Source of the DNA: Bacillota bacterium
GTDB lineage: Bacteria > Bacillota > Ch66 > Ch109
Assembly (NCBI GenBank): GCA_050952625.1
Contig: JBMNLH010000001.1
Span: 768,001 to 832,000 of the forward strand
DNA length: 64,000 nucleotides
Direction of reading: 5' to 3'
The notes beneath the pieces were generated by a model. It saw only the letters and a list, made by a program, of their open reading frames with translations. It was not told the DNA's origin and made no database searches. Below are positions 20,811-27,932 of the stretch, one piece after another (the first letter of the stretch is position 1; each line of letters begins with the position of its first letter). The translations under genes and the position numbers were made by a program.

Positions 20811-21147
20811 AGTCGTTATTTGTCGGTCATACTCTTTTTTGGTCGTTGCTTGCCATTAAGGGTTTACCAATAGATTATAAGCTAAATATAATAGTTATAT
20901 TATGGTTGCCCCAAATTAAGTATACAGTATTTATGGTTTACAGGTATTTGTTTCGCGGTAAACATCTGATATTCTTATATTAAAATACTGAATAATTTTA
21001 TGCTTAGGTTAAAGAGCTAATAATTTTTTGGATAAATATAGGGAGTTTGACGGATATACACTCAACCTGGGTGATATATAAGCAAACTGAGGTATTATTG
21101 AGAACACCGGAACATTTATTAGCTAACCAGCAGATACAGGATTGCAG

Positions 21148-21237
21148 CCGGGCAGATAGAGCGCGAGAATTGTCGTATTCTGCGCTAGGTAGGCCGGAGC
21201 TAATACCTGCCAAAAGTATTAGCTCCGGCTTTATTTT
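21148..21237 (+). ncRNA. Candidate cis-regulatory leader RNA with intrinsic terminator upstream of oadG/oadB unit 1
   Basis: Homologous to 27854-27932; hairpin AGCGC-G-AGAAT/ATTCT-GCGCT then a 14-bp terminator stem GCCGGAGCTAATAC/GTATTAGCTCCGGC and TTTATTTT. Confidence 0.6.
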
Positions 21238-21556
21238 GTATACAAAAAGCTTGGTCTAGGGTCTATACACATTAATTAATATTTGATAAGCTGAAGACGG
21301 TGTTTGTCAATGGTTCACTGTGATTAATAATACTTAAAAACTATATATTTGAATTAATTAAAGATATTTTGTCGAATTTAATAGTTTGGGAAAGGGTGAT
21401 GCAGTAGATTAGGCGGGAGTAGTTTTATTTGTGTCTAGGAATTTATTTTCGACTTAATCCGTAAATTGTTGAGTGGCGAAGGTTGTTGAACTTTCTGAAT
21501 TTAATGGATTCCTTGAACAATCTAGTTCTTATAACAATAACCAGGCAGGGAGGGAT

Positions 21557-21694
21557 ATGATGTTTTCCGGTATAGAGTGGGATTTGGTTTGGCGTGTTTG
21601 CATTTATGGACAATTAAGCGTTTTTATCGTGCTGACATTATTGATGATTTCTGTATATGCCACTTCATTTATCATTAGTCGAATAACTGAGTGA
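21557..21694 (+). CDS. OadG-like small membrane subunit
   Basis: 45 aa with one TM segment (GQLSVFIVLTLL), SD GGGAGG, directly upstream of oadB. Confidence 0.7.
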   Translation: MMFSGIEWDLVWRVCIYGQLSVFIVLTLLMISVYATSFIISRITE

Positions 21695-21774
21695 ATTTTA
21701 TTATGTAATTTTTATTTTGTAATTACAAATTTTGAATTGATTAATACACTATACAAAATAGGGAGAGGCTAGGG

Positions 21775-22896
21775 ATGTTAGAGATTTTTCGGGAGTTGTT
21801 TGAGGCCAGCGGATTATCGGTGTTGACAATCAAACAGGTAATTATGTGGCTGATTGCTATGATTGTCATGTATTTAGCTATTAAAAAGGAATTTGAACCC
21901 TTGTTATTGCTGCCGATTGGCTTCGGGATCTTATTAGCTAATTTACCTAAGGCGCATCTTATGGAAGAAAACATGCTGCTCTGGTTTTTTTATAACTACG
22001 GAATTAAAACAGAAATAATCCCTTGTTTGATCTTTCTAGGACTCGGGGCTTTAACTGATTTTGGTCCGTTGATTTCCAATCCGAAGAATTTGCTTCTAGG
22101 AGCAGCTGCTCAGGGGGGAGTCTATATTACTTATTTTGGGGCCATCCTAGCCGGCTTCACCATCAAAGAAGCAGCCGGGATTGCCATAATTGGGGGAGCC
22201 GATGGACCGACGACCATCTATGTCCTGTCTTATTTGGCACCATACCTTATGGGGCCTTGTGCGGTGGCCGCTTATTCCTACATGGCGATGGTCCCGCTGA
22301 TTCAGCCCCCGATTGCCCGACTCCTGACAACCAGGAAGGAACGATTGATTCGGATGCCGATGTTACGGCCGGTTAGTAAAACAGAGAAAATTATTTTTCC
22401 CATTGTCTCCACGATTGTCATCGTTATCTTAGTGCCCACAGCTGCTCCTTTAATCGGTCTGTTTATGCTGGGCAACCTGTTTAGAGAATCTGGAGTGGTG
22501 GAACGGCTGAATGATGTAGCTCAGAACGCTTTATTGAATATTGTAACCGTCTTTTTGGGGGTAGCCGTTGGCGCAACGATGAGTGCCGAAACCTTCCTGG
22601 ATCCTCAGGTGCTGTTTATCTTTGCCCTGGGAATAGTAGCCTTTGCGGCGGCAACTGCCATGGGGATAATTTTTGCTAAGATCATGAACCTGTTCCTAAA
22701 GGAAAAAATCAACCCCTTAATTGGCGCGGCCGGGGTTTCAGCGGTACCGATGGCCGCTAGGACAATGCACCGGGTCGCTCAGGCAGAGGACAAAAAGAAT
22801 TATATTCTGATGCAAGCGATGGGGCCAAATGTCGCCGGGGTGATTGGAACCGCTGTGGCGGCCGGGATGTTTATTGCGATGTTAGCTGATAAGTAG
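21775..22896 (+). CDS. oadB: Na+-translocating decarboxylase beta subunit (paralog 1)
   Basis: EPLLLLPIGFG, IIGGADGPT, AAYSYM, NPLIGAAGVSAVPMAAR, MGPNVAGVIG. Confidence 0.93.
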   Translation: MLEIFRELFEASGLSVLTIKQVIMWLIAMIVMYLAIKKEFEPLLLLPIGFGILLANLPKAHLMEENMLLWFFYNYGIKTEIIPCLIFLGLGALTDFGPLISNPKNLLLGAAAQGGVYITYFGAILAGFTIKEAAGIAIIGGADGPTTIYVLSYLAPYLMGPCAVAAYSYMAMVPLIQPPIARLLTTRKERLIRMPMLRPVSKTEKIIFPIVSTIVIVILVPTAAPLIGLFMLGNLFRESGVVERLNDVAQNALLNIVTVFLGVAVGATMSAETFLDPQVLFIFALGIVAFAAATAMGIIFAKIMNLFLKEKINPLIGAAGVSAVPMAARTMHRVAQAEDKKNYILMQAMGPNVAGVIGTAVAAGMFIAMLADK

Positions 22897-22924
22897 TTGG
22901 CTAAGCTAAGTAACGCAATAAAAT

Positions 22925-22966
22925 AAGCAGGAAGGTCCTTTCCGGTAAGGGTCTGCCTGCTTTTTA
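22925..22966. terminator. Terminator between oadB and the convergent minus-strand genes
   Basis: AAGCAGG...GGTCCTT/AAGGGTC...CCTGCTT with A-rich and T-rich flanks. Confidence 0.6.
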
Positions 22967-25186: not shown

Positions 25187-25219
25187 GCCGGTACTAAGCT
25201 AATTTTTTAGTACCGGCTT
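25187..25219 (+). terminator. Leader hairpin/attenuator upstream of hppA
   Basis: GCCGGTACTAAG/TTTAGTACCGGC; stem sequence related to those at 21193 and 27901; U tail is short. Confidence 0.5.
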
Positions 25220-25451
25220 AATCATGTACTAAATAACATAAATGTTCCCAATAAAATTACAAGGAGGAGATAGATATCAAATAAGTTATCGCTATAGTTA
25301 AATATCAGGGTACTACATATTTTAATCGTCAATAATATCTAATGAAATTTCAAAATAGGAGGTCCTGGACTGCTAAATAAAATAATGGTCAAATGAAACA
25401 ATGCTTAGTTGGGTAGTTTTATTATATTGATTCCAGGAGGCAGAAGTTATT

Positions 25452-27437
25452 ATGTCAGAAAACTTACAAATGGTATTATTGTACGGGGCACCGGCTGTGG
25501 GAATTTTTACTTTATTATTTGCTTGGATGCAAATCCTAAAGGTAAAACGCGAGCAGCCAGGCAATGCCCGCATGCAGGAAATTGCCGGGGCTATTCACAG
25601 TGGGGCCATGGCCTTTTTACGTCGTGAATATACGACTTTGCTTGCCTTTATAGCGGTGCTTTTTTTAATCTTAGCCTTAAAAATTGATCTGCGAACCGCG
25701 ATTTGCTTTATGGTCGGGGCCTTTTGCTCAATGACTGCGGGCTTTATTGGGATGACAGTTGCGACTATGGCTAATGTGCGGACCGCTAATGCGGCGCAGC
25801 ACTCACAGAACCGGGCTTTAGGGATTGCCTTTTCCGGGGGATCCGTGATGGGAATGTGCGTAGCTGGACTAGGTCTGCTCGGTTTAGGTGTTCTTTATCT
25901 GATTTATAAGGACCCGAATATTGTGAATGGTTTTGCGCTGGGCGGGAGCTCAATCGCTCTGTTTGCCCGGGTTGGCGGCGGAATATATACTAAAGCAGCC
26001 GATGTCGGGGCTGACCTAGTGGGTAAGGTTGAGGCCGGTATTCCGGAAGACGATCCCCGCAACCCGGCCGTGATTGCCGACAACGTAGGAGACAATGTCG
26101 GTGATGTGGCTGGCATGGGGGCTGACCTTTTCGAATCATTTGTCGGCTCAATTATTGCCTCGATGGTGTTGGGGATAACCCTTTTCTCCGCGGGTCAGCA
26201 GTTTAATGCAGTCATGTTTCCTTTGATGATTGCGGTGGCTGGTACCTTGGCCTCGATTTTGGGAACCTTCTTTGTTCGTTCGGATGAAAAGTCTAGCCCA
26301 CAGAAGGCTTTGAACTATGGAACTTTTGGGAGTGCCGCTTTAGTTATTCTCTTTTCTTACTTTGCGTCTAAGCAATTAATGGGTGAGATAAGCTACTTCT
26401 GGGCGGTGTTAGCCGGGATTCTTACCGGGACCGCGGTAGGTTTAATCACCGAATACTATACCTCCGGTGATTATAAGCCGGTTAAGGGGATTGCCGAACA
26501 ATCACAAACTGGACCGGCTACAACGATTATTTCCGGGATGGCGGTCGGGATGATGAGTACGGCTTTGCCGATTCTGGTTATTGCCGCTGGTATTTTAGTC
26601 GCCTTTAAATTTGCCGGCCTTTATGGAATCGCTCTCGCAGCGGTCGGGATGCTATCGACCACGGCCATGGTGGTTTCGGTTGATGCCTACGGACCAATTG
26701 CCGATAATGCCGGTGGTATTGCCGAAATGGCGGAGATGGATCCCGGTGTCCGCAAAATAACCGACCGGCTGGATGCAGTTGGCAATACAACAGCGGCGAT
26801 TGGGAAGGGATTTGCCATTGGTTCAGCGGCCCTCACCGCTCTAGCCCTATTTTCTGCCTTTACAAGTTCAGTAGGTCTTGCCAGCATTAGTCTTCTAGAT
26901 CCGCAGGTCATGGTTGGTCTATTGATTGGCGGGATGCTGCCCTTCTTGTTCTGCGCTTTAACCATGAGTGCCGTGGGTCGAGCGGCTTATCGGATGATTG
27001 AGGAGGTTCGGCGCCAATTCAAGTCCATCCCAGGCTTAATGGAAGGTAAAGCCAAACCTGACTATGCCCATTGTGTCGATATTAGTACCAGCGCAGCCAT
27101 TAAAGAAATGGTTATTCCCGGACTGATGGCTGTAGTTATTCCGCTGCTGGTCGGGATGGTTCTGGGCAAGGAGGCCCTTGGCGGGCTATTAGCCGGAGCG
27201 TTGGTCGCGGGGGTTCTATTGGCGGTAATGATGGCCAATGCCGGTGGGGCCTGGGATAATGCCAAGAAGTATATTGAGAGTGGCAATTACGGGGGAAAAG
27301 GGACCCCAACTCACGCTGCAGCCGTAGTGGGAGACACGGTGGGGGATCCTTTCAAGGATACCTCTGGCCCTTCGTTAAACATTTTGATAAAACTAATGTC
27401 TATTGTATCTCTCGTTTTTGCTCCACTATTTATGTAG
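25452..27437 (+). CDS. hppA: Membrane pyrophosphatase, K+-dependent, probably Na+-translocating
   Basis: [42 protein letters not shown] (Ala marks the K+-dependent class); DLFES Glu as in Na+-PPases. Confidence 0.93.
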
Positions 27438-27486
27438 CAAACCTTCATTACAAAACCATCATTAAAATTAAAAATCATGTTTGTTG

Positions 27487-27525
27487 AGCCCAGTATTTAA
27501 GATGCTAAATACTGGGTTGTTTTTT
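27487..27525 (+). terminator. Intrinsic terminator after hppA
   Basis: AGCCCAGTATTTA/TAAATACTGGGTT followed by a T run. Confidence 0.8.
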
Positions 27526-27853
27526 ATCGTAGCCATGATTGTTTTTTGTTGGTTTGCAATAAGAGGCAAAAAGGGGCATCAGATAGACATAACTTATGAA
27601 TATTAACTATATCACTGTTATCTGACGATAATCAGCACTTTGCTTTTTGCGTGGCAAAAGATATACTCACGATTAGAGCTGGGTAGATTTAGCTGAAAAT
27701 TTAGATGCAATGATACCAACGGCAACACAGAAAGGTAACCAAGCAAAAAGGGCTTTTCCTGAGAAACTAGCAGGCACGACGTTAAAACGGCGAAGTGTGG
27801 GCAGTTAGGTTAGGTGACAGTGTCGTGAGGTATATCAGCGATGAGTTTATGAA

Positions 27854-27932
27854 CCGAGCAGACAGAGCGAGCGAAAATCCTGTTTTCAGGTGCTAGGTGG
27901 GCCGGTGCTAATAGTATTAGCACCGGTTTTTT
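27854..27932 (+). ncRNA. Candidate cis-regulatory leader RNA with intrinsic terminator upstream of DUF2294-oadB-oadG unit 2
   Basis: Homologous to 21148-21237; terminator CCGGTGCTAAT/ATTAGCACCGG followed by T6. Confidence 0.6.

Follow-up and report, generated by a model that had tools for sequence, protein, structure and literature searches.

What question is posed by two decarboxylase genes that stand behind the same small leader sequence? We have examined this for a 64,000-nucleotide (nt) stretch of DNA from Bacillota bacterium (assembly GCA_050952625.1, contig JBMNLH010000001.1, positions 768,001 to 832,000 of the forward strand), hereafter the window, in which two leaders, A and B, precede two units containing oadB, the gene for the beta subunit of a Na+-transporting decarboxylase. 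The first-pass annotation of this DNA had proposed a transcriptional attenuator upstream of both oadB units and, as its candidate identity, an ion-sensing riboswitch resembling Na+-I. The attenuator stands: both leaders are very probably cis-acting attenuators, in which a rod-like hairpin and an intrinsic terminator compete for one strand. An ion-sensing riboswitch is possible and unproven, and the likeness to Na+-I did not hold up. The constant association of the leaders with mpsC, a gene of the DUF2294 family, leads us to put forward, tentatively, an antiterminator that depends on the MpsC protein.

The leaders are related to one another well beyond chance. Their co-linear blocks are as first described, with 16-mers starting at 21148 and 27854 (14/16 identical) and 22-mers starting at 21184 and 27892 (20/22 identical); when the two intergenic regions are aligned locally, the best alignment consists of exactly these blocks plus the terminator, and scores 48 against 22.8 +/- 2.7 (maximum 32) in 300 dinucleotide shuffles. 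Folds and a terminator scan likewise confirmed that inner hairpins of differing sequence, and terminators, are present in both leaders. The A-T/T-A swap in the terminator stem is real (pair 64-91 is UA in 4 of the copies described below and AU in 2), and the OadB paralogs are diverged as claimed, at 51% identity (183/356). The shorter words TAGGTTA and TGAGGTAT, also singled out by the first-pass annotation, do occur upstream of both leaders, but no more than chance would have it: the two upstream parts share 8 7-mers and 2 8-mers where 10.7 and 3.07 are expected, and neither word is retained in the orthologous leaders of another genus of the family (G004) and of a metagenome contig (L058).

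Each leader can be drawn in two ways. Cut before the right arm of the terminator, both are predicted to fold into a single rod, whose first helix, P1, is made of CCG, a one-base bulge and GC, facing GC and CGG on the opposite strand. Beyond P1 the rod has a 2x2 loop (AG opposite AG or GG), a P2 of 2 bp, a second 2x2 loop (AG opposite AG) and P3, which begins AGC/GCU and ends in a tip that differs wholly in sequence and length among copies. In the minimum-free-energy fold of the full leader the 3' strand of P1 (GGCCGG) becomes the foot of a terminator of 14-16 bp, with a T-rich tail behind it; were P1 held shut, an A/U-rich stem of 8 bp would be all that is left of the terminator, and the free stretch past P1 offers a toehold for the terminator right arm. 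A simple terminator scan missed the terminator of leader A, whose 9-nt loop probably exceeds the 3-8 limit of the scan. The RNA lies on the plus strand, that of the downstream genes, as judged from the T tail and from the G-U pairs present in both helices. The leaders thus show what defines an intrinsic-terminator attenuator: antiterminator and terminator pairings that exclude each other lie ahead of the regulated genes, and both are kept in all 7 copies; as modelled, the expression platform has the layout typical of a read-through (ON) switch. Two other readings of the structure were discarded. The purine loops are not a k-turn, since by inspection neither strand fits (the loops are 5'-AG/3'-GA, and not GA/AG after a 3-nt bulge), and a TRAP- or PyrR-type site would need more triplets than are present, PyrR being unmatched in Rfam as well.

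How widespread is the element? A model built from the two window copies (R1) and run on 151 relatives found them again, together with two copies in a genome of the same genus (G001) and two in G004; the R1 matches in 22 other genomes at E<=1 looked like chance, with oadB and mpsC absent beside them and, in those inspected, an apparently coding sequence without terminator. With a broader model (R2) the motif was found in 3 of the 7 genomes that constitute the whole class, in two copies each, while in the remaining four (G002, G003, G005 and G006) oadB orthologues are present and the motif is not. Two scans with degenerate patterns over one genome per species (185,579 species) returned only records of the same two lineages of metagenome-assembled genomes, and a pattern scan of metagenomes brought in a new copy (L058) and a chance match (L059). 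The motif is therefore very rare, being confined to one small class and one metagenome contig. The 7 copies, from 4 sources (the window, G001, G004 and L058), have the same two blocks and the same fold, with flanks and hairpin tips that are unalignable, and this contrast between sequence conserved across genera and flanks that cannot be aligned argues for selection on the leaders. Over the 7 copies the rod has 93% of its cells paired, and its 13 pairs include 7 invariant, 4 with one-sided variation and 1 compensatory (G-C to A-U); RNAalifold gives the same rod from the model-fitted alignment, with a covariation term near zero. These data are consistent with the rod and do not prove it, the covariation being too thin. 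The terminator is 98% paired with 2 compensatory pairs, which were reached in 5 of 500 shuffles. Within the window the two terminators (21192-21237 and 27899-27935) have arm sequences in common that are not those found in orthologous copies of the other genus (L041/L042), which hints at concerted evolution, gene conversion or a shared partner.

What, then, do the copies have in common in their surroundings? All 7 lie on the same strand as, and directly before, either mpsC or oadG-oadB, while the genes upstream vary. Four of them (leader B of the window and copies in G001, G004 and L058) lie ~70-95 nt before the mpsC start; the other three precede oadG-oadB and are in, or match, a syntenic island with mpsC, which in the window is ~6.7 kb away. 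The order in the window is accordingly leader A, small membrane open reading frame (ORF), oadB_A, and leader B, mpsC, oadB_B. G004 is syntenic, and its second copy (L042:3484-3536, minus strand) starts 3-6 nt past the hppA stop codon; mpsC comes next and then ylxM-ffh, in a genome without oadB_B. On L058 (975-6178, minus strand) a single copy heads mpsC, an oadG-like ORF, oadB, an OadA/PycB-like gene (with HMGL-like and biotinyl domains), a biotin carboxylase gene and hppA, an order that is possibly the ancestral arrangement. All three motif-bearing genomes have mpsC, and two of those without the motif, G002 and G005, are also without mpsC. The 320-nt spacer that follows leader A showed no remnant of mpsC.

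The link between mpsC and RNA of this kind is not limited to the class. Among the 30 best-scoring mpsC (PF10057) loci in other genomes of the phylum, none of which has oadB beside mpsC, 9 (L066, L069, L074, L077, L079-L082 and L089) carry a conserved RNA of ~55 nt, absent from Rfam, that starts within ~30 nt of the mpsC stop codon. A tenth locus has it ~175 nt past the stop (L087:2033-2086, 33.6 bits), and two more match weakly (L060 and L076, the former on the strand opposite to mpsC). From these loci we made an alignment (A7) and a model (R3). The consensus has a P1, a purine 2x2 loop, a P2 of 8 bp with 6 covarying pairs, an AG/AG loop and a P3, and a terminator takes its left arm from the 3' strand of P1. 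In the 151 genomes R3 gave 10 matches in 7 genomes, with an MpsC ORF directly upstream of 7 and within 2 kb of 1 more; 5 of the 10 are training sequences, and of the 5 independent matches 2 adjoin mpsC and 1 is near it. The RNA precedes Sbt_1, PurE, a second mpsC and other genes. Taking the first ORF downstream of mpsC, 9 of the 17 scanned handle CO2 or bicarbonate (Sbt_1 in 3, PurE in 2, biotin carboxylase in 2, a DabB-like protein and a subunit of the CODH/ACS (carbon monoxide dehydrogenase/acetyl-CoA synthase) complex), in keeping with the oadGB, oadA-like and biotin carboxylase genes behind the motif on L058.

By inspection this second RNA resembles the window leaders in being a rod with two 2x2 purine loops in which the 3' strand of P1 doubles as the terminator left arm; both adjoin mpsC (the leaders directly before it in 4 of 7 copies, with 3 in or matching the mpsC island) and both stand before carboxylase or bicarbonate genes. 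They differ in that P2 has ~8 bp compared with 2 bp in the window leaders, in the conserved letters of P1 and P3, and in position, the second RNA sitting after mpsC and the window motif before mpsC or oadG. Near the window leaders the best R3 score was 9.8 bits (E 4.8), on the terminator hairpin, so the leaders do not match R3, and since neither model finds the other type a common descent of the two is unproven. A custom descriptor (AG/AG loop beside P1 plus terminator) matched 5 of the 60 flanks of mpsC, where shuffles gave 1.6 and the antisense strand 1; it misses leader B and is not used as evidence. Hairpin-plus-terminator elements with an AGA...UAG signature visible by eye also lie beside mpsC in L071, L083, L063, L064 and L090 (of G003), the last ~60-190 nt after mpsC with UAUAG just before the shared arm; they are not cleanly alignable, L090 with either RNA type, and were left uncounted.

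Are the leaders a known RNA? A scan of the whole window gave no Rfam 15 family at gathering score on either leader, its sole match at that level being a c-di-GMP-I riboswitch at 50445-50528 (plus strand, 88.2 bits), and searches of 501-nt slices at E<=10 gave nothing relevant. The comparison with DUF1646, nhaA-I and nhaA-II that the first-pass annotation had suggested as a check of novelty thus leaves the leaders without a match among the Rfam 15 families. The Na+-I model (RF03071, gathering score 40.5 bits) had no match in either slice even at E<=10; over the whole genome its best score was 17.7 bits, at a site away from the leaders, and nothing exceeded the cut-off in the 6 other genomes of the class. 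The model itself recovered true examples in 2 of the 151 relatives. Li+-I / Na+-II (nhaA-I) and Li+-II (nhaA-II), whose models are presumed to be among the 4227 Rfam models scanned, were also unmatched at E<=10. Na+-I riboswitches do share with the leaders a terminator-coupled ON switch before Na+-pump genes and an aptamer that shares sequence with the terminator, and passages of three reports list oadG, pycB and oxaloacetate decarboxylase (OAD) genes among their targets in anaerobes of Bacillota type (PMC9337991, PMC9646797, PMC5737381). The architecture, however, is not shared: two hairpins make up Na+-I, and its conserved bases lie at the P1 foot and in the P2 loop, whereas the leaders form a single rod with two 2x2 purine loops. 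Because RF03071 finds no match and its two-hairpin consensus is unlike the rod, the suggested resemblance of the 3' block to DUF1646 is unsupported. In one relative (genome G101, L040:1304-1554, minus strand) we observed a Na+-I riboswitch followed in tandem by a cyclic di-AMP (c-di-AMP) riboswitch, the arrangement that PMC9337991 describes for Dehalobacter.

Two protein-dependent systems provide further parallels. The antiterminators BglG, SacY and LicT bind a ribonucleic antiterminator (RAT), an imperfect hairpin with conserved internal loops that overlaps the 5' arm of a terminator, and copies of it stand before the regulator gene and before a second operon. The leaders too are imperfect hairpins whose conserved internal loops overlap a terminator 5' arm; they have no sequence likeness to RAT, MpsC is unrelated to these regulators, and no CAT-PRD protein was found in a Pfam scan of the 10 ORFs in 19458-30404. 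HutP of the Bacillus subtilis hut operon is a small ligand-activated protein, encoded beside its terminator, that binds UAG-containing RNA and causes read-through. One or two UAG triplets occur in the 3' block of the leaders; HutP, by contrast, binds single-stranded repeats and not a rod, and MpsC proteins match PF10057 only.

The switch that we propose would work as follows. By default the strong terminator hairpin would form and transcription would stop before mpsC-oadB (leader B) or oadG-oadB (leader A). If the upstream rod were stabilised, P1 would retain the GGCCGG needed as the base of the terminator left arm, the terminator would be reduced to its A/U-rich 8-bp stem, and RNA polymerase would read through. 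The stabilising factor would most likely be MpsC, reading the two AG-type loops in the manner of BglG on RAT or of HutP, and the signal would be related to inorganic carbon or Na+; CO2/bicarbonate and Na+ suit the regulated genes equally well, and the wider MpsC neighbourhoods point more to the former. An antiterminator dependent on MpsC would explain why RNA and protein are steadily linked, why one copy precedes the regulator gene and another a second operon (the arrangement of BglG-type systems), and why the paired bases are so strongly conserved.

Since the motif is tied to mpsC and a similar RNA lies beside mpsC elsewhere, we regard a protein-mediated switch as at least as likely as a riboswitch, and we rank dependence on MpsC, itself a tentative choice, above the possible but less favoured alternative of a protein-free riboswitch of a new class, in which the rod would bind Na+, bicarbonate/CO2 or a dicarboxylate and so stabilise P1, with mpsC merely one of the regulated genes. 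The expression platform is a standard ON design, and in the relevant passages of the Na+-I literature both the position and the regulated genes (oadG, oadB, OAD) have their match (PMC5737381, PMC9337991, PMC9646797); as Na+-I is absent above the cut-off from this genome and the 6 others of the class, a substitute sensor would make sense. A c-di-AMP riboswitch lies directly upstream of an mpsC gene in another genome (L063:1934-2065, minus strand, 104.8 bits), so that mpsC can be a riboswitch target; two further c-di-AMP riboswitches, in L088, are on the strand opposite to mpsC. The core of an ion riboswitch is, however, usually kept over wide distances, whereas this one, looked for with covariance models, in two pattern scans of genomes and in one of metagenomes, is found in one small class and one metagenome contig. 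The rod is moreover simple, with a fully variable tip, no conserved tertiary element and no covariation support, and the steady tie of such an RNA to one protein family would not be expected of a riboswitch.

Other explanations need neither a ligand-binding rod nor MpsC. Another trans-acting factor may be involved, or the leader may be a stable small RNA of ~100-300 nt made from a promoter-to-terminator unit, the link to mpsC reflecting shared ancestry of the island. In RNA contigs leader B is covered by a short piece on its own, promoter-like sites were found upstream of the leaders in the window scan, and the closer likeness of the terminators within a genome than between orthologues would fit gene conversion or a shared partner. 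We consider this unlikely, given that the G004 copy beginning 3-6 nt past the hppA stop codon has no room for a promoter of its own, that strand and position before mpsC or oadG-oadB are kept in 7 of 7 copies though the upstream genes differ, and that neither a candidate target nor another regulator was seen among the neighbours. (A further promoter-like site after terminator A, at 21304-21331, is not retained in G004 and was rejected.) Least probable are plain, unregulated terminators behind a hairpin conserved by chance. Both terminators are strong and the covariation of the rod is not significant, as that reading would have it; yet two genera and both paralogous copies retain the 16-nt 5' block amid diverged surroundings, this block is exactly complementary to the segment of the terminator arm beside the T tail, and a terminator directly before the genes to be silenced in 7 of 7 copies implies control.

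Several observations weigh against a role of MpsC or of the rod: (i) the mpsC gene of the window is frameshifted and yet both leaders are intact, which would suit a riboswitch. One extra T in the run at 28281-28285 (T5, where G001 has T4) shifts the frame at about codon 89, and the conserved C-terminal third is lost; the genes of G001, G004 and L058 read through in one frame, and the frameshift could be an assembly error or a real, recent mutation. (ii) G003 and G006 have mpsC without the motif. (iii) The two RNA models fail to detect each other, and the shared layout of the two RNA types could be convergent or over-read. (iv) The covariation of the rod was reached in 155-220 of 500 shuffles. 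(v) The gene context requires no protein, because Na+ riboswitches that work without one are known to act on oadG and OAD genes (PMC9337991, PMC9646797). (vi) The predicted fold of MpsC, the putative RNA-binding factor (predicted local distance difference test, pLDDT, 91.5), resembles no RNA-binding or other protein clearly: the best Foldseek match was TcpA (E 0.017), the nearest coherent family Bet3/TRAPP (E 0.021), followed by YslB, and the best VIA-align Z was 5.9. A genetic study in Staphylococcus aureus found neither a phenotype nor a function for mpsC, which it describes as not being a functional part of mpsAB, and reports that mpsA transcription fell at 5% CO2 (PMC6689103). Literature searches on DUF2294, on MpsA/B/C and on Na+ riboswitches and oxaloacetate decarboxylase found no RNA element tied to DUF2294/MpsC.

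Leader B is present in RNA libraries. Short, separate contigs over 27685-27903 come from 4 metatranscriptome runs (3 studies); they show neither RNA ends nor levels. Three of the four contig sets represent a variant strain with 7-8 differences, of which the 7 listed all lie upstream of 27853 and none in the covered part of the motif. In these 4 RNA runs, which have no DNA run as control and do not thereby show termination, contig cover was absent over 27928-28224 and almost absent over oadB_B, and leader A too was nearly absent.

The features of the locus are collected in Table 1. The small membrane ORF ahead of oadB_A is conserved in G001, G004, G002 and L058 (tblastn) and has no Pfam match, and we apply the OadG label to it on account of its position and size. 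Between oadB_A and usp-hppA lie, on the minus strand (23140-24149), two conserved genes without Pfam match, for a membrane protein and a lipoprotein-like protein, which are also present in G004.

Table 1. Leaders, their alternative structures and neighbouring genes in the window
Feature	Position	Strand	Basis or remark
Leader A, probable attenuator (~90 nt)	21148-21237	+	ahead of oadB_A unit
Leader A putative antiterminator hairpin	21148..21197	+	folds; models R1/R2, 77-78 bits; pair counts
Leader A predicted intrinsic terminator	21192..21237	+	15-bp stem, left arm includes P1 3' strand, T-rich tail; minimum-free-energy fold, pair counts
Small membrane ORF, OadG-like	21557..21694	+	conserved part of 73-aa ORF 21473-21694; translation
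oadB_A, Na+-transporting decarboxylase beta subunit	21775..22896	+	PF03977, E 1.5e-153
hppA, membrane pyrophosphatase, upstream of leader B	25452..27437	+	PF03030
Terminator-like site of hppA	27487-27518		terminator scan
Leader B, probable attenuator (~90 nt)	27853-27935	+	ahead of mpsC-oadB_B
Leader B putative antiterminator hairpin	27853..27906	+	architecture of leader A, outer loop AG/GG; folds; R1/R2, 85-92 bits
Leader B predicted intrinsic terminator	27899..27935	+	14-bp stem then T run; terminator scan, fold, pair counts
mpsC (DUF2294)	28018..28458	+	frameshifted; PF10057 match stops at 87/111
oadB_B, second decarboxylase beta subunit	28562..29683	+	PF03977, E 4.2e-149

At its widest, and at this point doubtfully, the proposal would make MpsC (DUF2294) a new family of ligand-sensing, RNA-binding antiterminators that target rods with AG-type loops. 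Protein and RNA would then be a widespread means of sensing inorganic carbon (or Na+), and through transcription termination they would control carboxylases, decarboxylase Na+ pumps, PurE and transporters of bicarbonate. Of 401 genomes sampled in the phylum, 119 (~30%) contain PF10057. If the leaders are RNA targets of MpsC, the family would acquire a function, and a route would become apparent by which anaerobes link Na+-pumping decarboxylases, carboxylases and the uptake of bicarbonate to a signal in the cell; if it is the RNA itself that senses the ion or bicarbonate, the leaders would represent a new class of riboswitch.

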